Made by a program: the position numbers and the translations under genes. The notes under the pieces were generated by a model, which saw only the letters and a list, made by a program, of their open reading frames with translations, made no database searches and was not told the DNA's origin. From a virus, in the IMG/VR virus record IMGVR_UViG_3300037313_001510: DNA of 53,689 bases; one strand, 5' to 3'. How positions within the stretch are numbered: position 1 is the stretch's first letter; every line of letters starts with the position of its first letter. This document shows positions 29,987 through 40,908 of the stretch, in pieces.

Positions 29987-30664
29987 CTATTCCGATTTCG
30001 CGATCTGCGCAAGATCGAGCGTCACCAACGCCTCGCGACCGAACAGCCAGGTCAGCACGCGCACGTGTCGGCTGCCGATATAGCCTTCGAGCACGCCGCG
30101 CATCAGGGCCAACGGTCCATCCTCAATGACGACATGATCGCCAGGTTCGATAGCGAGCTCAGCCTTGCGCCGACGCTTCGCATCGACGGTCTGGTCCAGC
30201 CATCCCTTGTCGATCAAGCCCTTGACCTTGTTGATCTCTTTGATCCCTATCGGGCACGGTCCACCCATGCCGCATACGGCGCCAGAGACGAAGTCGACGC
30301 CGCGCAGCCACGACCAAGTCTCGGCTATCGGGGCGACGAAGACGAACACATAACCCGGAAAGGCAGGCACTTCCTTGACGATGCGAGGCGCCTTGTAGCG
30401 CGCGACGCGCCGCGCCGCCTCGACCTTCTTGCACGGCGCCCATGCCTCGAAGCCCGCCTTGAGCACTGAGTTTTCCACAGCGTTTTCGCTGTTGGGCGCG
30501 ACCGTCAGGGCAAACCATTTGCGCTCAGGTTCATCGATCGCCCGTCGCAACAGTTCCGCCCTCACCCGATTCTTCTCGCGCTGAACATCGCCAGCACGTT
30601 CCGCCCTGCTAGTATCGATCTTCACCGAACCATCGTTAAGCCGCTTCACGTCCACCGCCATCAT
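29987..30664 (-). CDS. NusG/RfaH-family transcription elongation/antitermination factor paralogue
   Basis: NGN-like segment WFALTV...VPAFPGYVFVFV...WSWLRGVDFVSG and KOW-like segment IEPGDHVVIEDGPLALMRGVLE...VRVLTWLFGRE. Confidence 0.8.
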   Translation of the reverse strand: MMAVDVKRLNDGSVKIDTSRAERAGDVQREKNRVRAELLRRAIDEPERKWFALTVAPNSENAVENSVLKAGFEAWAPCKKVEAARRVARYKAPRIVKEVPAFPGYVFVFVAPIAETWSWLRGVDFVSGAVCGMGGPCPIGIKEINKVKGLIDKGWLDQTVDAKRRRKAELAIEPGDHVVIEDGPLALMRGVLEGYIGSRHVRVLTWLFGREALVTLDLAQIAKSE

Positions 30665-31856
30665 TGGTCTTGTCCTCGCTTGCCTTGACCGCCTGTTCGA
30701 ATGCATCCAGTCCGTCCGGTCCGCCGACCGGGAAATACACCACCGGCATCTGGCCGGGATCGGGCAACCACGGCCAACCGCGCTTCTCGTGCTCGGCGAG
30801 CCAGAGTTGCCATATCTCGCCGCGCACCGGCACGGGCTCCATCAGCGCCGCCAAGGCCTCGAGCTCCGGCGCGACCGTGATGCCGCGCCGGCTCTCCGCC
30901 GCCTCATGCATCCGGTTGACTGATGGCCAGCCATGCGCGGCCTGCCTGGTCAGCCGCGCCTGCCTGCCCTTGGCGTCGTCCTGCGCCAGCAAGGCCGCCA
31001 TGAAGCCCTTCGCCGGAGGCGCTTCAGCCGGCGGCGAGGTGAGCAGCATGCGCAGCCTGACCGCGCTCCAAACCGGACCGAAGGGCGGCGCAACGATCAC
31101 TGTCGGCTTTTCTTCAGCCGGCTCCGGCACGTCGCGCCAGAGCTTCTGTCCGAAATAGCTCGACGGTGCCGGGATGTGGGTTTTCTTCTGCGCCTTGAGC
31201 AGCGCCAGCCAATGCGGGAATAGCCTGATCGCCTCGACACGATCGACCGCGTCGAGGCCGAGCCACACCTTCAGCGCCGGTTCCTTCGGCATGCCGGCGA
31301 AGCCCGGCCAGTCCTTCAGCAGCGCCCAGCCGTCGCGCTCGATCTTTTTGCGATCCTCATCCCCGTCTCTCTCGCGCGCTTGCGCGCCCGGTTGAGAGGT
31401 TCCAAGGACGGTTCCATTGGACGGTTCTTCTATAGAGGGCTGCTGCTGGTTGCCGGTAGGACGGTGCCCATTGCCGGTAGGTTCGGCGTCTGGTTGCCGG
31501 TTGGTCCTACCGGCAATTTCTGCCGGTAGGACATCCGAATCCGCCTCGCCGCCGCGCAGCCGCTCTGCCCCGTCCAGCACCTTGGTACCGAGCTTGAGCA
31601 TGATCAGGTCGGTAGCCCGCGCGCCTTTGGCGCCGGTGCGGCGCGAGCGCTCGATCAGGCCCCAGTCCTCGAGCCTCTGCAGCCATTCGCGCGCCGTGCG
31701 TTCAGACACTTCGGCATCGGCGGCGAGCTGCTCCTGGCTTGGCCAGCACTGCGCCTTTTCCGGGTCGGCATAGTCGCCGAGGCACAGGATGATCGACTTC
31801 GCCGCCGGCGAGCCGAGCCGCTGTTCCTTCGCCCATGCTGAGGCTTTCCAGCTCAT
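30636..31856 (-). CDS. Replication initiator-like protein (N-terminal winged HTH), 406 aa
   Basis: N-terminus AKSIILCLGDYAD...SQEQLAADAEVSERTAREWLQRLEDWGLIER. An iteron cluster lies in the linker-coding region. Confidence 0.65.
   Translation of the reverse strand: MSWKASAWAKEQRLGSPAAKSIILCLGDYADPEKAQCWPSQEQLAADAEVSERTAREWLQRLEDWGLIERSRRTGAKGARATDLIMLKLGTKVLDGAERLRGGEADSDVLPAEIAGRTNRQPDAEPTGNGHRPTGNQQQPSIEEPSNGTVLGTSQPGAQARERDGDEDRKKIERDGWALLKDWPGFAGMPKEPALKVWLGLDAVDRVEAIRLFPHWLALLKAQKKTHIPAPSSYFGQKLWRDVPEPAEEKPTVIVAPPFGPVWSAVRLRMLLTSPPAEAPPAKGFMAALLAQDDAKGRQARLTRQAAHGWPSVNRMHEAAESRRGITVAPELEALAALMEPVPVRGEIWQLWLAEHEKRGWPWLPDPGQMPVVYFPVGGPDGLDAFEQAVKASEDKTNDGGGREAA
31448..31530. repeat. Iteron cluster, candidate origin of replication
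   Basis: TTGCCGGTAGG-type 11-mers at 31448, 31469, 31492 (variant) and 31518, plus an inverted copy at 31504-31514. An adjacent GGACGGTTC x2 lies at about 31406-31428. Confidence 0.7.
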
Positions 31857-32746
31857 ACGAACATCCCCACCTGCTCGTCGTATCGCTCACGCGTCTTAGC
31901 CGACCTGCGATAGTCGGCAAATGGCGTCTTTCGCCAGATCATCGGCGAGTTCGCCCAGCGAGCCACGTCGCGCAGGAGCTGCTCATTCCAGTCGAAACGT
32001 GGATGCGGCCGGCGCTCAAGGGAGTTTAGCTTCATGAACGGCTGGACGTGCGGTTCGCCGCCCCAGGCCATCACCTCGCCGATGCGCTGCATGCATGCTT
32101 CGAAGGGTTCGTTCCCGATCAGGACATAGACGCGTTTCTGTCGGGGCGACACACCGGCAAGCATGCGCATGACACGCTCGACAAACGGACGTTCCGCCAT
32201 GTCGTCATACGCAAACCGCCACGGACCTCGATTGATGGTCTTCCATCGCGCGTAGACGTCATCGTCGAACGTGCGTGGCTCGAATCCGCTGTTGGCATCG
32301 AGCAGAGGCACGCCGGCCGACATGTAGCGCGCCACGATGTGTTCCTGATAATCAGCGGGCAAGGCCGATAGGTTGTTGTCGCACAGCACAGGCCGAACCG
32401 GGAAATCCGGCAGCAGCGTGAACGCCTTGCCCTCCATCTTCGGCACGATGCAGAACCAGCAGCCGACCGGACAGCCACGGCTGGCGATCGTCGCCATCGG
32501 ATTGTGCCGTGCGACGACGTCGTCGATCGAACCACCGATTTCGGCCACATCGGCAAGGAAGTGCTTGCGCGTGAAGACGCCAGGGCCGCCAACCCGCACG
32601 TTCAGGCCATCAGCGCGATGCCAGCAGGCGCGCTGATAGGCGTCGTTAAGACGCCACGTGAAGGCCACTGAAATAAAGGCGGTGTCGCCTTCGATCCATT
32701 CGGCAATACCGCCCGACCAACGGCCAAGATCATAACCGTTGCTCAC
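31853..32746 (-). CDS. Radical-SAM-like enzyme, 297 aa
   Basis: CxxxCxxC cluster ASRGCPVGCWFCIVP (codons at 32450-32473), followed by VLCDNNLSAL, which resembles the DDNF motif of Elp3/B12-type radical SAM enzymes. Confidence 0.6.
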   Translation of the reverse strand: MSNGYDLGRWSGGIAEWIEGDTAFISVAFTWRLNDAYQRACWHRADGLNVRVGGPGVFTRKHFLADVAEIGGSIDDVVARHNPMATIASRGCPVGCWFCIVPKMEGKAFTLLPDFPVRPVLCDNNLSALPADYQEHIVARYMSAGVPLLDANSGFEPRTFDDDVYARWKTINRGPWRFAYDDMAERPFVERVMRMLAGVSPRQKRVYVLIGNEPFEACMQRIGEVMAWGGEPHVQPFMKLNSLERRPHPRFDWNEQLLRDVARWANSPMIWRKTPFADYRRSAKTRERYDEQVGMFV

Positions 32747-34686
32747 TCCGCCGCCTCCAGCACCAGCTCACGGCGCACGTTGCATTGTGCCAAAAGCTCG
32801 ATCATGCGCGGCGGCACGCTGTTGCCGACTAGGTGATATTTCTCCGTCTTGGTCAGCCGGCGCTTCCTGCCGTCGATCGTGATCTCGGCCGGCAACGCGC
32901 CAGGCCTGAAGCCATGCGCGGCCGCGCCCTCCTCCGGCTCCAGCATGCGGATGCCGATGTCGTCGATGTAGTGGCGCACGCCCTTGACGATCACCTCGAC
33001 GAGGCCGTAGCGCGCCTTGCCGGTCAGCGCGCCGAGCGGCTGGCGCACGTCGTCGTCCTGCTTGCCCGAGCCGAAATAGTGCTGCAGGAAGCCGAGGATC
33101 AGATGAGCATGGCTGCCGCCGGCCGCGATCGTCGCCAGCGGCTCCTCGATCGGCCGCCCATCCTGGTTGGTGCCATGCAGGTTGCCGAGCGTCGCCGCGA
33201 CGACGCCCTGCGTCGAGCCGAGCGTGACGATGGTCGACACAGGATCCTCGGCCGAGCGACCCGGCGCGCCGGTGTTATGCTGCGCCAGGAAGGCCGCCAC
33301 AAGCGCCGCCTTGCTGCCGCCGACCTGCGTGCCCGCCGGCTCCTCGAGGTCGAGCACGCGCGGCGCCTGCCCTTCCCGCTCGCCATAGCCGGTCTGGATC
33401 AGGCTGGCCGCCACCACCGCATGCCGCGGCGCGCCGGCCATGACCGTGTCGAGCGGCTCGGTCGGCATGGTGCCGACGCCGTTCTGGTTGAATTTCGTTA
33501 GATGCGCGGCGACCAGCAGCCGATCTTCCTTGCCCGTCGTCGTGCCGAGCGGCTCGGCGAGGTCGCGCGGTGCCGATTGTGCGGCACGCCCACCGGCGCC
33601 GACGATGGTCGCGCCAAGCACCGCCATCCCCGACGATGTGTGCAGCGTGTTGATCGGCTCTTCGGCCGAATTGACGCCGTTGCGCGCCGCCGCGCTCTGC
33701 TGGTCCGTGCGAATCAGGACCGGCGCCACCACGGCCATCTCGCCGCGATGCGCGGCGGTCAGCGTGCGCAGCGGTTCCGCCGCGTCGTGCACGCGGTCGT
33801 CGCCGGCATGGGTGATCGGCACGATGAACGGCTTTGCCGCGTCGACGACGTAGCGCATCACGCCGCGCGCCGTGCGCCGCAGCGTCGCCTCGGCCAGCGG
33901 CTTCTTGCGCCCGAAGATCGACTTCACCGGCAGCGACCAGTCGATGATCGTGTGCGCGCCGACCCACGGCTTCAGGCCGAGTCGCTTCGCCTCCTTACGC
34001 GGCGCATGCGTGCGCGCCGGCCACACGATCGACCGGCCATCCGCCTGGGCGATGCCGAAGAAGCGTTTCCTGATCGTCGGCACGCCATAGTCGGCGCAGA
34101 CCAGCACGCGGTGCTCGAAATTGTAGCCGAGGCCGCGCATATGCTTCAGCCAGGCGCGCCAGATCCGGCCCTTGTGGCGCGGGTCCGGGATCAGCCATTG
34201 CTCGGCGACCGGCACCCGCTCGCCCTTGGCCGCGACTGACCCGTCGAGCCGCAGCACGCGCCCGCTCGCCGGGTCGCGCTTGGCGATCAGCGGCCCCCAG
34301 GTGGTGATCTCCTGCACATTCTCCATGGTGATGGTCTCGGGCCGCACGGTGCCCGCCCAGCGGCAGATCACCCACGCCAGCGAGCGCCGCCGCTTCGACA
34401 CCGGCTTCGAGCCCTTGGCGACGGAGAAATGCGTGCAGTCGGGCGAGGCGTGCATCGCGCGTACGCCGCGCCCGGCAGTCACCTTGCGGGGATCGGCCTC
34501 GAACACGTCGCAGCGCAGGTGCCTGGTGTGCGGATGCCGCCTCTCGTGCACAGCGACCGCGACCGGATCGTGGTTGATGGCGACATGGACATGGAAGCCG
34601 GCATCCTCCAGCCCGTCGCAGCCACCGCCCATGCCGGCGAACAGCACGACCGTCATGCGATTGTCGAGCGAAAATGGTGCGTTCAT
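32743..34686 (-). CDS. DNA (cytosine-5) methyltransferase with about 8 tandem TRD-like modules, 647 aa
   Basis: Motif I LFAGMGGG, IV SPDCTHFS, VI ENV, VIII TIRKRFF, X GNSVPP. The variable region carries repeated E-P-x-x-T-(L/I/V) modules. Confidence 0.85.
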   Translation of the reverse strand: MNAPFSLDNRMTVVLFAGMGGGCDGLEDAGFHVHVAINHDPVAVAVHERRHPHTRHLRCDVFEADPRKVTAGRGVRAMHASPDCTHFSVAKGSKPVSKRRRSLAWVICRWAGTVRPETITMENVQEITTWGPLIAKRDPASGRVLRLDGSVAAKGERVPVAEQWLIPDPRHKGRIWRAWLKHMRGLGYNFEHRVLVCADYGVPTIRKRFFGIAQADGRSIVWPARTHAPRKEAKRLGLKPWVGAHTIIDWSLPVKSIFGRKKPLAEATLRRTARGVMRYVVDAAKPFIVPITHAGDDRVHDAAEPLRTLTAAHRGEMAVVAPVLIRTDQQSAAARNGVNSAEEPINTLHTSSGMAVLGATIVGAGGRAAQSAPRDLAEPLGTTTGKEDRLLVAAHLTKFNQNGVGTMPTEPLDTVMAGAPRHAVVAASLIQTGYGEREGQAPRVLDLEEPAGTQVGGSKAALVAAFLAQHNTGAPGRSAEDPVSTIVTLGSTQGVVAATLGNLHGTNQDGRPIEEPLATIAAGGSHAHLILGFLQHYFGSGKQDDDVRQPLGALTGKARYGLVEVIVKGVRHYIDDIGIRMLEPEEGAAAHGFRPGALPAEITIDGRKRRLTKTEKYHLVGNSVPPRMIELLAQCNVRRELVLEAAE

Positions 34687-35231
34687 CGTTCCGCCTTCAG
34701 CCATGCGCCAAAGCTCGCGCGCAGCGCTTTCCACGCGTGCGCCGCCCTGGCGTCTTCGTTGAGTTCCGCGCGCGAGGTCACCCCGAGGATCGAGCGCACC
34801 TTCTGCGCCGCGCGCTCATTGTTCAGCGGCGGCTCGAGCCCGTGCCGCTCCGCCAGGAATTGCTGGAAGCGCCGCTCCGCGCATTTGATCGCGCATTCGG
34901 CGGCGAAATCCTTCGGGTCGCGCACAGGCGCGTTACTTGCCTCGTCGAAGGCCTGGCCGGCCTTCAACTCGCGGATCGCGGCAAAGGCCTGGTCGAGCAG
35001 GGTGAGCAGGAAGCCGACATAGTCGGGCGCATCGGCCATGAAGATCACTTCCGCAACGCTCGCCGCATCGAACCGTGCCAGCACGAAGCGCTCGCCATTG
35101 CCGGCCTCGGCCTCGATCAGCGCGCCGTTCTCGTCATGCGCGCGCGTCCACCGTGCCGGCGCGATCGCCGCATAGGCCGTGCGGACCGCCTTGAGACGGG
35201 CAGCATCGGGCGAGCGCGCGGCGGCATTCAT
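34683..35231 (-). CDS. Hypothetical protein, 182 aa
   Basis: Start reset to MNAAARS. ATGA-coupled on both sides. Confidence 0.55.
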   Translation of the reverse strand: MNAAARSPDAARLKAVRTAYAAIAPARWTRAHDENGALIEAEAGNGERFVLARFDAASVAEVIFMADAPDYVGFLLTLLDQAFAAIRELKAGQAFDEASNAPVRDPKDFAAECAIKCAERRFQQFLAERHGLEPPLNNERAAQKVRSILGVTSRAELNEDARAAHAWKALRASFGAWLKAER

Positions 35232-35572
35232 GGCAACGCCTCGGCCTTGCCGTTGAACCATTCATAGAAGCGCGATGGTCCGCATGTGCAGCGCCAGCCG
35301 TTCTTGCGGAGCGTCGCGAGAAGACACTTGGCCTCGGCGCGGGGAAGCTCATATCGATTCCAGCACCAGTTGCCGAACCAGTCCTTGGAACCGACGATCT
35401 TGAAGTTTCGCCTGTCGATGCGAATGAAGCCAACACCCGTCGAAAAGGAAAAGCTCTGCCAGCCCGGCGACTCCAGTTCGATGTCGCCATAGGTCGCCAT
35501 CATGGCCTTGCCGGAAAACAGGCCGTTATCCGGATCGTTGCAGGCAAAATCAATGTAGGCTGTCCGCTTCAT
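35228..35572 (-). CDS. Hypothetical protein, 114 aa
   Basis: Start reset to MKRTAYIDF. ATGA-coupled. Confidence 0.55.
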   Translation of the reverse strand: MKRTAYIDFACNDPDNGLFSGKAMMATYGDIELESPGWQSFSFSTGVGFIRIDRRNFKIVGSKDWFGNWCWNRYELPRAEAKCLLATLRKNGWRCTCGPSRFYEWFNGKAEALP

Positions 35573-36860: not shown

Positions 36861-37687
36861 GCCGCACCGCCAGTCTCGCGTTCGGCGAGCAGGTCAACGA
36901 ACCAGAATTTCTCGACCTTGCGGATGTCGACAGCGGCAATATTTTCGATGATGAAGCGTCGGATGTCGCGCCGGTGAATCCACCAGAAATCGTCCGTGGC
37001 TGTCGCGTCCCGCCGTTTCGCCCGCAGCCAGCCCTTGGCGATCCATCCGCTTACGGTCTTACGGTCGACGCCCATGACGCCAGCAAGCTGGTTGGCGTTG
37101 AGATGATGCGGATCGGTGCGATCGGCGCCGAGCCGCTTCAGCTTGACGACGATCGCCGTCTCGGTCCGCTCGAATCCCTGCTTTTTCAGGAGCCGCCGCA
37201 GCGAGGCCGGCGATTTGTGAGCATTCTCGCCGAGCAGGTCGAGTTCGGCCTCGCTCCATGGCGGCTGCTTGAAGCGCGGCGTCACCAGGCCGAGTTTCGC
37301 CGCCCGTTTCGAGATCCACCAGCGCGGCCGGCCGCAGGTCGCGGCGCAAGCCTGCACGTCTTTCTTGGTCGGCGTCTTCTGGTAGGCGCGGCGTATGATA
37401 TCGTCGATCGCGGCGCTCGACGCCCACGCCTGCCGCTCATTGACCTTGCCGTTGGCGCAGGGGATGCGAAGACCAAGGATCGCCGCGCGCTGATAGATCG
37501 ACGACGCCGAGCGCCCTGGGAGCACCGCCAGGCAGGCCGAGACGCCGCCGGTCGCGTAATGCTCGCGCAGCAGCTTTTCCTCGCGTCCGGTCCAGAACCG
37601 CCGGGCTCCGGCGCGCATTTCGCCGACGACCGGATTGAGGTCGAGCAATTCGCGGATACCGCCGACTTCGCGCGCGATGGCGTTCAT
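36857..37687 (-). CDS. DNA-binding protein with two SANT/Myb-like repeats and a MerR/excisionase-type HTH, 276 aa
   Basis: WTGREEKLLREHY and WSEAELDLLGENA repeats. HTH segment LNANQLAGVMGVDRKTVSGWIAKGWL. Confidence 0.5.
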   Translation of the reverse strand: MNAIAREVGGIRELLDLNPVVGEMRAGARRFWTGREEKLLREHYATGGVSACLAVLPGRSASSIYQRAAILGLRIPCANGKVNERQAWASSAAIDDIIRRAYQKTPTKKDVQACAATCGRPRWWISKRAAKLGLVTPRFKQPPWSEAELDLLGENAHKSPASLRRLLKKQGFERTETAIVVKLKRLGADRTDPHHLNANQLAGVMGVDRKTVSGWIAKGWLRAKRRDATATDDFWWIHRRDIRRFIIENIAAVDIRKVEKFWFVDLLAERETGGAA

Positions 37688-39111
37688 GCCGGCACCTCGC
37701 CGGCGGCTTCGATGAGGCGCCCAAGCTCAGCCAAGCGCTTGGCGCCGCCGACCGAGAGTTCCCGGCCGGCCCAGATCAGGCCGCGTTCCTTCAGCATTTC
37801 GAACAGTTTGCCGTCGCATTTCGCGCCGGCTGCCACCGCCGAGAGCAGATCGAATTCGGCGCGCTCGTCGGTCATCACCGATGGGCGAATGGAAAGGGAC
37901 GCCGGTACGGCAAGCGGCTGCGGGGATGCCGTGGCCTCGCCCTCCTCCGCCGGGCCGAACATCGTGGCGTTCTCGAACACCTTCCAGTCGACGCGCAGCA
38001 CCTCGTGCGGGCCGTCATAGGCTTCCGAGCCGTCCGGCTGAGGCCGCAGCTCCCAGACGAACCAGGCGGTGTTCATGCGGCTCGACGCCTCCGGGCCGTC
38101 CCAGCCGTCGCGGTGCATCATCGGCAGGCGCCGGCTGAAGACGTAGGTCATCGCTGGCGGATTGTCGTCGAGGGCAAAGCAGCGGTCGGGATCGTCGAAG
38201 CCGCACAGGAAATTCAGGTTCAGCAGCAACGCCATGCGGCGCGGCCGGTGCGCGCGCAGCGCATGCGCGACGAAGGCGTTGAGATCGGTGCCATAGGGCG
38301 GATTGGTGACAATGTCCGGCCGCTCCGGATCGTCGGCGCGCGCCGCGCTGGCGAGAAAATTCTCGACGCGCTGCAATTCGCCGTCCTTGGTCGCGGTGCC
38401 ATAGTCGACCAGGTCGGCAAGCTCGACCTCGTAGCCGGCATCTTCCAGCATGCGGCTGATCGCGCCCTTGCCGCAGGCCGGCTCCAGCACACACTTCGAA
38501 AACCGCATGAAGGAGAGCAGCGTGCGCATCGCCTCCGGCGGCGTCTCGTAAAGGTTGTTGCCGCGCTCGGCGGCGGTGGCGCTGTCGGTGCCGACGGCGG
38601 CGCGCAGGTTGGCGGCACGCTTGAGCCCTGCCCGCGTCGGTTCGCTGCCGGCTGCCAGCATCTGGTCGAGCGCGCGGCGCACGATGCCAGGATCCTGTTC
38701 GATGACGTCGCGCATCTGGCGCGCCTCGAACACTTCCTTGCGGGTAAGCCCGGCATCTTCGGCTGTCGGAACCTTGTTCTCGGCCGGAACAAGGTCGGTG
38801 CGCTGGCCCTTCCTGCCGATCTCGCCGCGTCCCTGTGCGGCATCATATTCATCGGCCAGCCGGCGCTTCGCCATGCTTTCGATTTCGAGCGAGTCGGCCT
38901 GCACGCGATAGGTCGCGGCGATCAGCTCGTCATGCGCACGCTTGGCCTTCTGCAGGCGAGCCGTGCGCTTGGCCGCGTCATAGGTGGCCGTCGCCATGTC
39001 GCGCGCGGCCAGCACCTCAGCGGCGCTGGTGGCGCGCGCGAGCGCCGCCGCCGCCTCTTTCACCAGAGACGGCAGCGGCTTCTGTTCGGCGGTGGTGACA
39101 GCTTTTGACAT
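37684..39111 (-). CDS. DNA amino-methyltransferase (N6-A or N4-C), 475 aa
   Basis: Motif I VLEPACGKGAIS lies about 60 aa before motif IV IVTNPPYG. Long N- and C-terminal extensions. Confidence 0.75.
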   Translation of the reverse strand: MSKAVTTAEQKPLPSLVKEAAAALARATSAAEVLAARDMATATYDAAKRTARLQKAKRAHDELIAATYRVQADSLEIESMAKRRLADEYDAAQGRGEIGRKGQRTDLVPAENKVPTAEDAGLTRKEVFEARQMRDVIEQDPGIVRRALDQMLAAGSEPTRAGLKRAANLRAAVGTDSATAAERGNNLYETPPEAMRTLLSFMRFSKCVLEPACGKGAISRMLEDAGYEVELADLVDYGTATKDGELQRVENFLASAARADDPERPDIVTNPPYGTDLNAFVAHALRAHRPRRMALLLNLNFLCGFDDPDRCFALDDNPPAMTYVFSRRLPMMHRDGWDGPEASSRMNTAWFVWELRPQPDGSEAYDGPHEVLRVDWKVFENATMFGPAEEGEATASPQPLAVPASLSIRPSVMTDERAEFDLLSAVAAGAKCDGKLFEMLKERGLIWAGRELSVGGAKRLAELGRLIEAAGEVPA

Positions 39112-39281
39112 CAGGCCGAAGCTCCGTCCTTTTCACCGGCGACCTTGATGCCTTTGGTCTCGCCGCATTTTGGGCAGGCGGCGCGCGTCGCCAGCTGCAC
39201 CGCCTTCGCCAGTTCCATCGGCAGATGAGCGACGACCCAGACGTGGCCGCATTGGCATTTTCCGCGAAGATCGCTGGTCAA
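39111..39281 (-). CDS. Zinc-ribbon protein, 56 aa
   Basis: Below the ORF-track cutoff. TTG start (TTGA overlap) after GGAGG. Translation MTSDLRGKCQCGHVW...CPKCGETKG. The stop overlaps the MTase ATG. Confidence 0.5.
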   Translation of the reverse strand: MTSDLRGKCQCGHVWVVAHLPMELAKAVQLATRAACPKCGETKGIKVAGEKDGASA

Positions 39282-40231
39282 GGATGCCTCCGTTTCAGTG
39301 GCACGACGGAGCCGCCATCTGCGGCGGTTCCATCAGGCGGATAGGACGAGGCGTCCTGCAGCAGAGGCCAGGGAAAGAGCGGCAACGAGCGGTCGGCCGT
39401 TCCCTGATTCCAGAGACGCGGCAGCCCGAGATCGGGATGCGGCTTCACCGTCTCCAATACGCGCGAGATCACCGCGTCGCGGCTCATCTCCCAGCCTGCC
39501 TTCGGGCCGACGATGATCTGCCGCTTTATGTTCTCGGCGAACGACCGCATCAGCGCCGGAGAGGCCGTTTCCATGGCGGTTGAAAGCGCCGCGAGAGCCG
39601 GTTCCGGCAGCACGAACGGCGCGAAATAACGCTCCAGAATGCGGCGACGCTCGTGATCGCCGGGCAAGGCCAGTTCGACATGGATCTCGAAGCGGCGCCA
39701 CACGGCAGGATCGACGCGGTCGCCGAAATTGGTGGCGGCAACCGCAAAGCCCTCATAGCGATCGAGGTTGGCCAACAGAGTGTTAATGGTGTGGTTGTGA
39801 TCCTGCTCACCGACGGCGTTCATCTGGCCGTGCATGCGCGCTGCGGCGAGGCTGTCGAACTCGTCGAAGAACAGGAAAACCGGTTCTTCCAATGCTCGAA
39901 CGCAATCAAACATCCGGCCGAGGTTCGCAGCGCTTTCGCTGACATAGGTTGTCTTGAAACGCTCCGGACGGATGACGAGCATCGGCAGGCCAAGCCTACC
40001 CGCCAGATGGTGGGCAAGCGTCGTCTTTCCGGTCCCGGGCGCGCCGTGGAAAATCGCTCTCTTGCGCGACTTGAGATTGACCGCTTCCAGTTCATCGGCA
40101 GCCCAGATTTCGGTCAGCCATTCCAGCAGCGCGGAGCGAACCGGCTTTGCCAGAATCGGCTCGCTCGCCTGGTCCGGCGCGAGGATCTCGCCGAAGTCTG
40201 CCACCTCGGCATTTCGCATCGACCGGAACAT
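39278..40231 (-). CDS. AAA+ ATPase (classical AAA type), 317 aa
   Basis: Walker A GAPGTGKTT and Walker B LFFDEFDS. Confidence 0.8.
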   Translation of the reverse strand: MFRSMRNAEVADFGEILAPDQASEPILAKPVRSALLEWLTEIWAADELEAVNLKSRKRAIFHGAPGTGKTTLAHHLAGRLGLPMLVIRPERFKTTYVSESAANLGRMFDCVRALEEPVFLFFDEFDSLAAARMHGQMNAVGEQDHNHTINTLLANLDRYEGFAVAATNFGDRVDPAVWRRFEIHVELALPGDHERRRILERYFAPFVLPEPALAALSTAMETASPALMRSFAENIKRQIIVGPKAGWEMSRDAVISRVLETVKPHPDLGLPRLWNQGTADRSLPLFPWPLLQDASSYPPDGTAADGGSVVPLKRRHP

Positions 40232-40908
40232 TATTTTTCTTCCGGCCCCATGCCATCGGTGCCGCTCGCCTCGCGCCAGCCTGCGTCAAACTCCTGGCGC
40301 CGCTTGTCGCCGAACGGGAACGGGTTTGAGACGATCGGCTGGTTTTCCCGGTAGGCGACGCGACCGAGTTCTTTTGCCCCAGCGGCGTCGACAGCCGGCA
40401 CATCGCGCTTTTCCCGCTCCGGCATCGCCGAGGCCGGTTTCGAGGCCGGCTTCGGCTTCTCGACGACATCCTCGGCCTGTGCCTCGCCGTTCTTGTCGCG
40501 ATAGAGCCGCACCGGCTGTGCGCCGATCTTGACGATGATCTCGCCTTCCGTCGGCACAAGCAGCTTAAAGGCCGCGATCACCTCGTCGCGCGCGGCGAGA
40601 TCGACGCTCATCTGGCCAACCGAACGGAACAGCGGCGTCTCCGTCGCCATGCCGAGTGCATGCAGGTACATGTCGAGCTGCGCCTGGGCTTCCTCAAGGT
40701 CGGCCGGCTTGGCGGCGCGGCGCTTCAGCACGTCGCGCACCCGCGCCGGCGTGAAACCGGCCGCCGCGAGCTCCGCGAAGATCAGTTTTTCGTCTTCGTT
40801 GAGCTGCTTCTTTTCCTCGCGGACGCGTTCGATGCGCTCGACGAAGCCTTGCAGCTGCTGTCCGGATACGGTGTTGCGGCCGATCGCCGCCATGTCACGC
40901 TTTGCCAT
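40231..40908 (-). CDS. GapR-like (DUF2312) nucleoid-associated domain fused to a C-terminal extension, 225 aa
   Basis: QLQGFVERIERVREEKKQLNEDEKLIFAELAAAGFTPARVRDVLKRR...LDMYLHALG parallels Caulobacter GapR. Confidence 0.7.
   Translation of the reverse strand: MAKRDMAAIGRNTVSGQQLQGFVERIERVREEKKQLNEDEKLIFAELAAAGFTPARVRDVLKRRAAKPADLEEAQAQLDMYLHALGMATETPLFRSVGQMSVDLAARDEVIAAFKLLVPTEGEIIVKIGAQPVRLYRDKNGEAQAEDVVEKPKPASKPASAMPEREKRDVPAVDAAGAKELGRVAYRENQPIVSNPFPFGDKRRQEFDAGWREASGTDGMGPEEK

Follow-up and report, generated by a model that had tools for sequence, protein, structure and literature searches.

A radical SAM enzyme gene between a C5 DNA methylase and a replication initiator belongs to a widespread family of temperate phages

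Radical SAM enzymes linked to phage DNA modification comprise only QueE, which acts in 7-deazaguanine pathways, and gp53 of M6 (PMC8989533). M6 gp53 is a radical SAM isomerase of the 5-NedU thymidine hypermodification pathway and the only radical SAM enzyme reported as installing a DNA modification (PMC8989533). Here, we describe a further radical SAM enzyme, encoded in a stretch of viral DNA of 53,689 nucleotides (IMG/VR virus record IMGVR_UViG_3300037313_001510), referred to as the window. It is encoded by a phage, as is M6 gp53, and the cluster motifs of the two resemble each other (CPVGCWFC versus CTVGCAFC), but gp53 has 480 amino acids, resembles spore photoproduct lyase and is encoded within a 5-hmdU/kinase/PLP-decarboxylase cluster. 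Homology to gp53 was rejected, as hhalign gave a probability of 5.9% and BLASTP aligned the 10-residue Cys motif alone. Genes of the 5-hmdU pathway (hydroxymethylase, 5-HMUDK, aGPT-Pplase, PLP decarboxylase) were absent among the early proteins of the window that were scanned. An identity with QueE was discarded as well, since no QueE model was found among the Pfam, NCBIfam and PHROG matches at E ≤ 1. The initial annotation, which recognized the protein neither as QueE nor as any described phage DNA-modification radical SAM enzyme, was right in this respect.

The closest solved structures share only 10–14% identity with the family. MgmA (9ccb), TokK (7kdy) and CysS (9n1c/9n1d), cobalamin-dependent (class B) radical SAM C-methyltransferases, have the same order of parts as the family, with the B12-type Rossmann domain at the N-terminus and, behind it, a radical SAM partial TIM barrel with the CxxxCxxC motif. 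The model of the window protein aligns with MgmA at a TMq of 0.57, with 11–14% identity to the class B enzymes, but the window protein has no C-terminal domain and is shorter (297 versus 417–660 amino acids). Class B methylases belong to biosynthetic clusters or methanogenesis, whereas the family described here is phage-borne. AprD4 (6fd2), the best Foldseek match of the window model (E 2.3e-5, TMq 0.59, 13% identity), is a radical SAM 1,2-diol dehydratase of an aminoglycoside pathway with AprD3 as partner reductase. It shows that an enzyme can have a B12-like N-terminal domain and bind no cobalamin, but its type of context, the pathway and the AprD3 partner, is absent around the window gene. 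MiaB and RimO (7mjw, 4jc0) share with the family the flavodoxin-like N-terminal domain and the radical SAM barrel; the sequence matches of the family to them sit around the cluster motif, and many family members have a GFPG(E/T)T-like motif in strand 5, as in MiaB/RimO. The three-Cys auxiliary cluster of methylthiotransferases (in the UPF0004 N-terminal domain) and the TRAM domain are, however, both absent from the window protein. With these two missing and the NCBIfam models of MiaB and RimO scoring 10–12 bits against cut-offs above 250, a methylthiotransferase identity was rejected.

The gene and its immediate neighbours

The radical SAM gene lies on the minus strand of an early operon, with the following features:

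30636–31856, minus strand: replication initiator, HTH_36, phrog_270 (profile matches)
31853–31856, minus strand: ATGA overlap of the radical SAM stop codon TGA (31855–31853) with the initiator start codon ATG (31856–31854) (sequence)
31853–32746, minus strand: radical SAM enzyme gene, PHROG 9298 member, 297 amino acids, GTG start (ORF list and sequence, phrog_9298, AF2 model, fold matches)
32366–32389, minus strand: VLCDNNLS, residues 120–127, strand-2 motif with invariant D123 and N125 (conservation)
32450–32473, minus strand: CxxxCxxC motif C92-P-V-G-C96-W-F-C99, predicted 4Fe-4S ligands (invariance in 43 homologues)
32573–32707, minus strand: N-terminal remnant (residues ~14–58) of a B12-binding-type Rossmann domain (alignment, long-form model)
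32743–32758, minus strand: coupling to the upstream gene, with GGAGG (32758–32754), a 7-nt spacer and GTG (32746–32744) over the methylase stop codon TGA (32745–32743) (sequence)
32743–34734, minus strand: C5 cytosine DNA methylase, 663 amino acids, ~8 tandem EP(L/I)xT target-recognition-like modules (PF00145 2e-23, phrog_116 1e-80)

The gene is co-oriented with and translationally coupled to both neighbours. Upstream, its start overlaps the stop codon of the methylase, as the initial annotation had claimed, but the overlap is GTGA and not ATGA; the start codon is therefore GTG, and the Shine-Dalgarno sequence GGAGG is found 7 nt 5′ of it. Downstream, the ATGA overlap with the initiator gene was confirmed, and so were the iterons inside that gene: four copies of the iteron-like repeat TTGCCGGTAGG are present at 31446–31532. 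The upstream gene indeed encodes a multi-module C5 methylase, as seen from the PF00145 match and the repeated EP(L/I)xT modules. The window also has a second methylase, which is of a fourth type.

The two motifs described initially are both present in the 297-residue product. In an alignment of 43 homologues with 24–58% identity, G91, C92, C96, C99, D123, N125, R177, D181 and W253 are invariant, and nine invariant residues at such distances argue that the CPVGCWFC motif is not a product of chance. Outside CxxxCxxC, the same alignment contains no conserved Cys. As in the clades of B12 type and MiaB type, VLCDNNLS probably replaces the SAM-binding GGE motif, a role deduced from known radical SAM motifs. 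After the barrel follows a short C-terminal tail that is helical and disordered as well as basic; the median pI of the family is 8.5.

Family membership and fold

The window protein matched phrog_9298 with an E value of 1.9e-17 (residues 22–282 versus profile positions 43–294 of 305), and fusion proteins and distant homologues matched the same profile at 1e-25 to 1e-30. Together with the fold comparison (Foldseek probability 1.00) this supports the identification as a radical SAM protein made in the initial annotation. The label of PHROG 9298, 'radical SAM domain protein', is at the level of the superfamily and gives no function. There is no family-specific model for the window protein in Pfam, NCBIfam or PADLOC, a PADLOC search with it for components of known anti-phage defence returned 0 families at E ≤ 0.01 and a literature search found no paper on the family. 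PF04055 gave 17.5 bits, below its gathering cut-off of 29.5, with the match confined to residues 88–114; since the family is divergent, this score is a limit of sensitivity and not an exclusion, and 22 of the 43 family members are matched by PF04055 at E ≤ 0.01 (best 2.7e-7). PF02310 matched 12 of the 43, the window protein not among them.

The family is large, with 3337 clusters at 90% identity and 706 at 50%. We gathered 159 relatives on viral contigs and 61 on genome contigs, the latter mostly prophage-like; related loci were collected with the sub-alignments A3, A6 and A7, and single distant proteins as queries gave 0–1 loci. By tblastn, 9 of 50,697 records of cultured phages have a PHROG 9298 protein, whereas metagenomic and prophage members are counted in thousands. 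LoVEphage (a Bacteroides phage), Marinitoga camini virus 1 and Methanomassiliicoccales virus vir215 share the enzyme at 24–30% identity. The family thus occurs in phages of Alphaproteobacteria, Dehalococcoidia (Chloroflexi), Bacteroides, Thermotogae and archaea.

Could the protein be a degenerate, inactive relic, whose CxxxCxxC motif arose by chance or persists for structural or regulatory reasons? The PF04055 score under the threshold and the truncated N-terminal domain would fit, but the Cys triad and the motif residues of the barrel are invariant at 24–58% identity, conservation among relatives from different phyla is 60–92%, and the model has high confidence. In addition, one homologue (P0139) has an intein inserted directly before the third cluster Cys, which marks this site as catalytic and conserved. 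We consider the relic barely credible; judged from sequence conservation and model, the window protein is a genuine and probably active radical SAM enzyme.

The AF2 model of the window protein (pLDDT 93.8) combines a partial TIM barrel with a truncated N-terminal Rossmann domain. Foldseek matched it to AprD4, MgmA and MiaB with a probability of 1.00 and TMq values of 0.52–0.59, in support of a place in the B12-domain/Elp3-MiaB-type clade; a resemblance to the Elp3/B12 type had been suspected initially. A sequence search of the PDB with the single protein returned only noise, and the PDB sequence matches were obtained with the family profile, which matched the MgmA sequence at 4e-5, B12 domain included. 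A fold search of BFVD yielded only viral radical SAM and COG1032 proteins with generic names, topped by a viral methylthiotransferase.

The absence of an obvious cobalamin domain, claimed in the initial annotation, is true for the window protein as far as the full domain goes, but a truncated remnant is kept and the domain is complete in longer homologues. The remnant is ~45 residues long (beta-hairpin, helix, strand), with conserved S26, F29, W31 and G53-G54-P55; according to the alignment, the first beta-alpha-beta unit found in longer homologues is missing. In the model of the long-form homologue P0156 (pLDDT 91) a full B12-type domain is predicted, which in fold searches matched the cobalamin domains of MgmA, TokK, CysS, MetH and mutases. 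The whole P0156 model matched MgmA with an E value of 2.5e-10 and a TMq of 0.62, and also CysS, TokK and AprD4. Alignments and models together show that long members of PHROG 9298 have the full predicted architecture of cobalamin-dependent (class B) radical SAM C-methyltransferases. The closest folds thereby suggest radical C-methylation as the chemistry, but with the Rossmann domain shortened, cobalamin-dependent methylation may not apply to the window protein itself.

Genomic context of the relatives and proposed function

The relatives are encoded in highly mosaic early regions of phages, among replication, recombination and methylase genes; helicases, YqaJ/RecT, DnaB, Prim-Pol, NinG, RusA, NusG-like proteins and integrases are found as neighbours, and the contexts are nin-region-like. 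BLAST clustering of up to four neighbours per side (811 proteins in 690 clusters, and 703 in 610) revealed no constant partner gene. The radical SAM protein is thus a stand-alone enzyme without a conserved partner gene. DNA methylases are the commonest identifiable class of neighbours, present within about 5 kb in 79 of 209 loci and directly adjacent in 19 (N6/N4 in 8, C5 in 7, Dam in 3, and in 1 a type like the second methylase of the window), counts that are lower bounds because the detection misses MT-A70 and other classes and ORF-based gene calling is crude in GC-rich loci. Almost all neighbouring methylase genes (93 of 98) share the strand of the radical SAM gene.

Is this proximity specific? 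Over 0–5 kb from the radical SAM gene the density of methylases falls from 10.0 to 2.1 per 100 kb, and that of pooled control genes (DnaB, DUF5131, an IstB-like loader, the replication initiator and two unnamed neighbour clusters) from 6.8 to 1.0 per 100 kb. The two distance distributions do not differ (chi-square p=0.36). Since the controls decay alike, the decay was dismissed as evidence for a specific methylase linkage; methylases cluster no more tightly than other early genes, so that their proximity is explicable by a shared location in the module.

From the coupling to the C5 methylase it was proposed initially that the enzyme acts after the co-translated methylase and turns 5-methylcytosine or 5-hydroxymethyl pyrimidines into a hypermodified base by radical chemistry. 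Apart from the coupling in the window and the seven loci with a directly adjacent C5 methylase, a TET-associated glycosyltransferase next to the radical SAM gene in one other locus speaks for such a pathway. But the arrangement is not conserved: any C5 methylase is found in the flanks of only 25 of 209 loci, and directly adjacent methylases are no less often N6/N4 and Dam than C5. Homologues of the window methylase lie within 6 kb in only 9 of 114 loci of the close subfamily, with an identity of only 23–42% even where the radical SAM protein is 92% identical, and in one relative of 92% identity (L006) an extra gene separates the two. Moreover, those early-region proteins of the window that were scanned include no TET/JBP, hydroxymethylase, 5-HMU kinase or glycosyltransferase. 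The C5 methylase is a neighbour in this phage and not a conserved partner of the radical SAM enzyme, and the proposal as it stands is very unlikely.

A second line of context comes from fusions. Single proteins join the radical SAM enzyme to a Dam methylase (P0211), to ParB_N (P0192) and to HTH_36 (P0212). P0211 is unique in 5.8 billion sequences, and P0192 was seen on one 2.4-kb contig; the Dam and ParB fusions are one-off events.

Our best guess for the role of the enzyme is nonetheless modification of DNA, or of nucleic acid. The putative link to DNA comes from methylases as the commonest class of neighbours, the rare fusions to DNA domains, and the basic pI and tail. The methylase clustering, however, does not differ from that of other early genes, the Dam and ParB fusions did not recur and the closest structures act on protein (MgmA), small molecules (AprD4, TokK, CysS) or tRNA (MiaB). 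All in all, we tentatively favour, at somewhat less than even chances, a phage radical SAM enzyme that modifies a carbon centre, most likely on phage DNA or its nucleotides. The enzyme would cleave SAM reductively to a 5′-deoxyadenosyl radical; the carbon then modified would belong to a macromolecule of universal occurrence, with phage DNA, or nucleotides on their way into it, as the likeliest candidate. The enzyme would be a self-contained item of the DNA-modification and anti-restriction toolkit of the phage, standing beside ordinary SAM methylases and independent of them, and the 5mC product of neighbouring methylases would not be processed by it. A bolder version, in which PHROG 9298 consists of stand-alone DNA-modifying enzymes such as cobalamin-assisted C-methylases of a nucleobase or sugar in duplex DNA, is doubtful. 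To our knowledge, a carbon-linked modification of duplex DNA by cobalamin-assisted radical C-methylation is not known chemistry.

The fold matches to enzymes acting on small molecules and protein are also an argument for a different substrate: a small molecule, the nucleotide pool or a host protein, in counter-defence or an AprD4-like dehydration, with the early region being merely a site for accessory genes. The missing conserved partner would agree with this, as would mosaic contexts with the anti-defence protein Acb3 (2 loci) or ribonucleotide reductases (3 loci) and a methylase proximity no stronger than that of other early genes. Yet there is no match to PADLOC models or to any characterised family, conservation across phages of distant hosts, archaea included, argues for a universal target, methylases remain the commonest neighbours and each of the rare fusion partners is a DNA-binding or DNA-modifying domain. 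We regard a substrate of this kind as unlikely, though well worth keeping in mind.

RNA has to be considered, too. The enzyme could modify tRNA or rRNA, as do MiaB, RimO, RlmN and Cfr, and thereby tune or protect translation during infection. RNA-bound MiaB (7mjw) is matched by the fold with a probability of 1.00 and a TMq of 0.52, RimO and MiaB are matched in sequence at the cluster motif and the top BFVD hit is a viral methylthiotransferase; an RtcB-type tRNA ligase is encoded near the gene in LoVEphage, and the basic pI would suit RNA as well. On the other hand, conserved Cys for an auxiliary cluster are missing, as is a TRAM or other RNA-binding domain, the long form is nearer to cobalamin-dependent methylases than to MiaB, and genes of DNA metabolism overwhelmingly dominate the neighbourhood. 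An RNA substrate is therefore improbable, and modification of a carbon centre on phage DNA or its nucleotides is the reading that we retain.

The window protein is a genuine member of a very widespread family of temperate phages whose function is uncharacterised. The family is unrelated to QueE and M6 gp53, and it is strongly conserved while its surroundings vary. With about 295 amino acids the enzyme is small and self-contained, which makes it experimentally tractable. If its target is another one than DNA, the family would still be among the largest functionally blank enzyme families of temperate phages. If it modifies DNA, both the modification of the base or sugar and the enzymatic route to it would be new, with consequences for the evasion of restriction, for the detection of modifications by sequencing and for enzyme tools. 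And if it is a C-methylase of DNA, thousands of temperate phages would have, in their anti-restriction repertoire, a second class of DNA 'methylase' with an unrelated mechanism.

The radical SAM gene and its flanking genes

The initial annotation had described a radical SAM enzyme encoded between a C5 methylase and a replication initiator with internal repeats, and profile matches bear out these flanks.

Features of the window around the radical SAM gene
31853-32746, minus strand: radical SAM gene, ORF of 297 aa
32473-32450, minus strand: codons of CPVGCWFC (residues 92-99), read from the sequence
32743-34734, minus strand: C5 cytosine methylase, 663 aa, upstream of the radical SAM gene (PF00145, 2e-23; phrog_116, 1e-80)
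34683-35261, minus strand: phrog_10379 protein (3.9e-49; function not assigned), encoded immediately upstream of the C5 methylase gene
31446-31532: within the initiator gene, four iteron-like repeats (core TTGCCGGTAGG) at a spacing of 21-31 nt
29987-30706, minus strand: NusG-like protein (PF02357, 3e-13; phrog_6386, transcription antiterminator, 4e-28)
37684-39111, minus strand: second DNA methylase of the same early operon (phrog_799, 2.9e-71)
39278-40231, minus strand: AAA ATPase of the phage early region (PADLOC IetA models of the IetAS defence system, 1e-45)

Translation of the ORF puts the cysteine motif and VLCDNNLS (residues 120-127) where they had been read before. The stop codon TGA (31855-31853) shares bases with the ATG (31856-31854) of the following gene, again as described. 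The start does overlap the stop of the upstream gene, but it is a GTG and not the ATG proposed (GTGA at 32746-32743); GGAGG at 32758-32754 precedes it with a spacer of 7 nt. The downstream gene encodes a lambda-O-like initiator (HTH_36; phrog_270, 3e-44), and its repeats match a lambda-type origin embedded in an O-like gene. This block is part of the minus-strand early operon of the prophage and is followed by the NusG-like antiterminator and then by terminase and portal. The NusG-like gene, located between the initiator and terminase genes, probably encodes a late-gene antiterminator; since its longest ORF overlaps the 3' end of the initiator by 71 nt, translation probably begins further downstream.

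The C5 methylase contains, from residue ~310 to 580, about eight tandem EP(L/I)xT modules of ~32-36 aa each, which look like target-recognition domains stacked as in a multispecific methylase. In its motif IV region, SPDCTHFS takes the place of the usual PCQ. The second methylase had no Pfam match at E<=0.001, and relatives of it are found near the radical SAM gene in 8 of 209 loci. The gene downstream of the AAA ATPase (40231-40908) encodes a GapR-like DNA-binding domain.

Assignment to the radical SAM superfamily

The single sequence by itself gives weak evidence: its PF04055 match reaches 17.5 bits (cut-off 29.5) and covers only the cysteine motif, and NCBIfam models of B12-type radical SAM enzymes and MiaB/RimO match the same stretch with 10-14 bits. 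At the level of the family the evidence is strong. The profile and structure comparison suggested in the initial annotation led to PHROG 9298, 'radical SAM domain protein' (1.9e-17 over nearly the full length), and to the folds of AprD4, MgmA and MiaB. In an alignment of 43 homologues (24-58% identity), G53, G91, C92, C96, C99, D123, N125, R177, D181 and W253 are invariant; PF04055 is matched by 22 of these homologues and the B12-binding domain PF02310 by 12. At the sequence level, the family profile also finds MgmA at 4e-5, with an alignment that reaches into its B12 domain. One homologue, P0139, carries a Hint/LAGLIDADG intein exactly before the third cysteine (...CPVNCSF[C...intein...HN]CIVP...), a position that would fit a catalytic, highly conserved site. 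Such inteins occur in two family members, P0139 and P0246, both outside the window; in the archaeal plasmid record LC711081.1, a radical SAM enzyme with intein is annotated under the match.

An AlphaFold2 model built from 77 sequences (pLDDT 93.8, pTM 0.88) has AprD4 (TMq 0.59), MgmA (0.57) and MiaB (0.52) as its only significant PDB matches, all of them radical SAM enzymes that carry a Rossmann or flavodoxin-like domain at the N-terminus. MgmA, whose fold the model resembles, is a cobalamin-dependent glutamine methylase. Roughly half of the family has ~40 additional N-terminal residues. P0156 is one of these long forms; its model (pLDDT 91.1) has a complete Rossmann domain and matches MgmA at 2.5e-10 as well as CysS, TokK and AprD4. 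Taken by itself, the N-domain of this model matches cobalamin domains from MetH, mutases, AerR and photocobilins. With high confidence, the models and profiles thus identify the protein as a genuine radical SAM enzyme that falls in the B12-domain (class-B-like) clade, and the earlier impression of a B12/Elp3-type protein was sound. That it lacks a cobalamin domain is true only in part: the window protein, a short form, misses the first beta-alpha-beta unit, but keeps the conserved S26...G53-G54-P55 part. With this shortened N-domain it may or may not use cobalamin; AprD4 is a precedent for a B12-like domain that works without cobalamin. With motif and predicted barrel intact, an inactive relic is hardly credible.

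Several known identities were rejected. No QueE model was among the Pfam, NCBIfam and PHROG matches, as anticipated. The M6 protein gp53 is a radical SAM isomerase in thymidine hypermodification (PMC8989533). It shares only the cluster motif with the window protein (hhalign probability 5.9%; BLASTP aligns 10 residues), which agrees with the view that this is not a described phage DNA-modification enzyme. Alignment and model exclude a methylthiotransferase, as auxiliary-cluster cysteines and a TRAM domain are missing, and no PADLOC model of a known defence component was matched. PHROGs already gives the superfamily assignment, and relatives go under the name 'radical SAM protein' in some GenBank records; no paper on the PHROG 9298 family was found in the literature searched. 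The gene is an uncharacterised addition to a known enzyme kind, not a new type of system.

Distribution of the family and its neighbours

The family comprises 3337 clusters at 90% identity and 706 representatives at 50% identity, with 159 close relatives in IMG/VR. The closest relatives of the window protein (92% identity) are Mesorhizobium hypothetical proteins. The 61 genome relatives are from Alphaproteobacteria, Gammaproteobacteria, Dehalococcoidia, Acidobacteria, Bacillota and others, and most of them have a prophage-like setting. At greater distance the family is represented in Bacteroides LoVEphage-type phages, Marinitoga camini virus 1 and one archaeal virus. Among 50,697 deposited phage genomes, only 9 encode a member, and this rarity among cultured phages may help account for the unassigned function.

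The protein is conserved at 60-92% across hosts, whereas its gene surroundings are extremely mosaic. With up to four neighbours per side, 811 neighbour proteins from 114 distinct loci of the close subfamily fell into 690 BLAST clusters, and 703 from 98 loci of the distant subfamily into 610. None of these was a constant partner, which argues that the enzyme works alone. Neighbours recognised by Pfam (helicases, YqaJ/RecT, DnaB, Prim-Pol/D5, DUF1376, HTH_36 initiators, NinG, RusA, NusG-like proteins, integrases, DUF5131 and, in 3 loci, ribonucleotide reductase) are typical early-region, nin-region-like genes. The uncharacterised DUF5131 (PF07505, phage Gp37/Gp68) lies within ~5 kb of the radical SAM gene in 25 of 209 loci, with no preferred position. 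In the LoVEphage OY731433.1, the deposited annotation has a '5S ribosomal RNA' (barrnap; L001 4095-4200) ~0.7 kb upstream of the radical SAM gene; close by are a PAPS reductase-like gene and DNA methylase ORFs that are split.

The coupling to the C5 methylase had been taken as a functional clue, but this arrangement is specific to the present phage. Only 9 of the 114 close loci have a homologue of the window methylase within 6 kb, and its identity is just 23-42% even where that of the radical SAM protein reaches 92%. One such 92% relative comes from locus L006, where a phrog_10379 homologue (58% identical) abuts the radical SAM gene and separates it from the methylase; only the phrog_10379 gene, the initiator and the NusG-like gene are neighbours shared by this locus and the window. 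A search with iterated local HMMs (N6/N4, C5, Dam and the second methylase type) found a methylase in the flanks of 79 of 209 loci, within 2.5 kb in 59 and directly adjacent in 19 (N6/N4 8, C5 7, Dam 3, second type 1). Methylases are the commonest neighbour class identified, yet they are of every chemical class, which argues against a dependence on 5mC. With a C5 enzyme in just 25 loci, specific hypermodification of 5mC is very unlikely; the early-region proteins of the window that were scanned also included no TET/JBP, hydroxymethylase, nucleobase kinase or glycosyltransferase. Moving away from the radical SAM gene, methylase density drops from 10.0 to 2.1 per 100 kb, but that of control early genes falls similarly and the distance distributions do not differ (p=0.36). 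Proximity, which could simply reflect a shared module, failed against the control genes as support for a role on DNA.

Possible substrate and significance

The data show a stand-alone early-operon enzyme, translationally coupled to its neighbours, with cluster motif and modelled barrel intact and an architecture that, by the models, is derived from cobalamin-dependent radical SAM methylases. It would form a 5'-deoxyadenosyl radical that modifies a carbon centre of some substrate which all these hosts and phages share. DNA would be the best candidate because of the setting rich in DNA metabolism and methylases and because fusions are only to DNA-binding or DNA-methylating domains: one to Dam, unique in the database searched, one to ParB_N, on a 2.4-kb contig, and one to HTH_36. 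Though rare, these appear to point towards DNA, as do the median family pI of 8.5 and the basic, disordered C-terminal tail. RNA as the substrate is improbable, and a small-molecule or protein target, including one in counter-defence, is unlikely. Modification of DNA is a possible, still tentative, function, and the chemistry may be radical C-methylation, as the nearest folds suggest. The family is of interest because it is abundant, self-sufficient and, against a mosaic background, strongly conserved, and for the possibility, on circumstantial grounds, of a radical chemistry on DNA of a kind not yet described.
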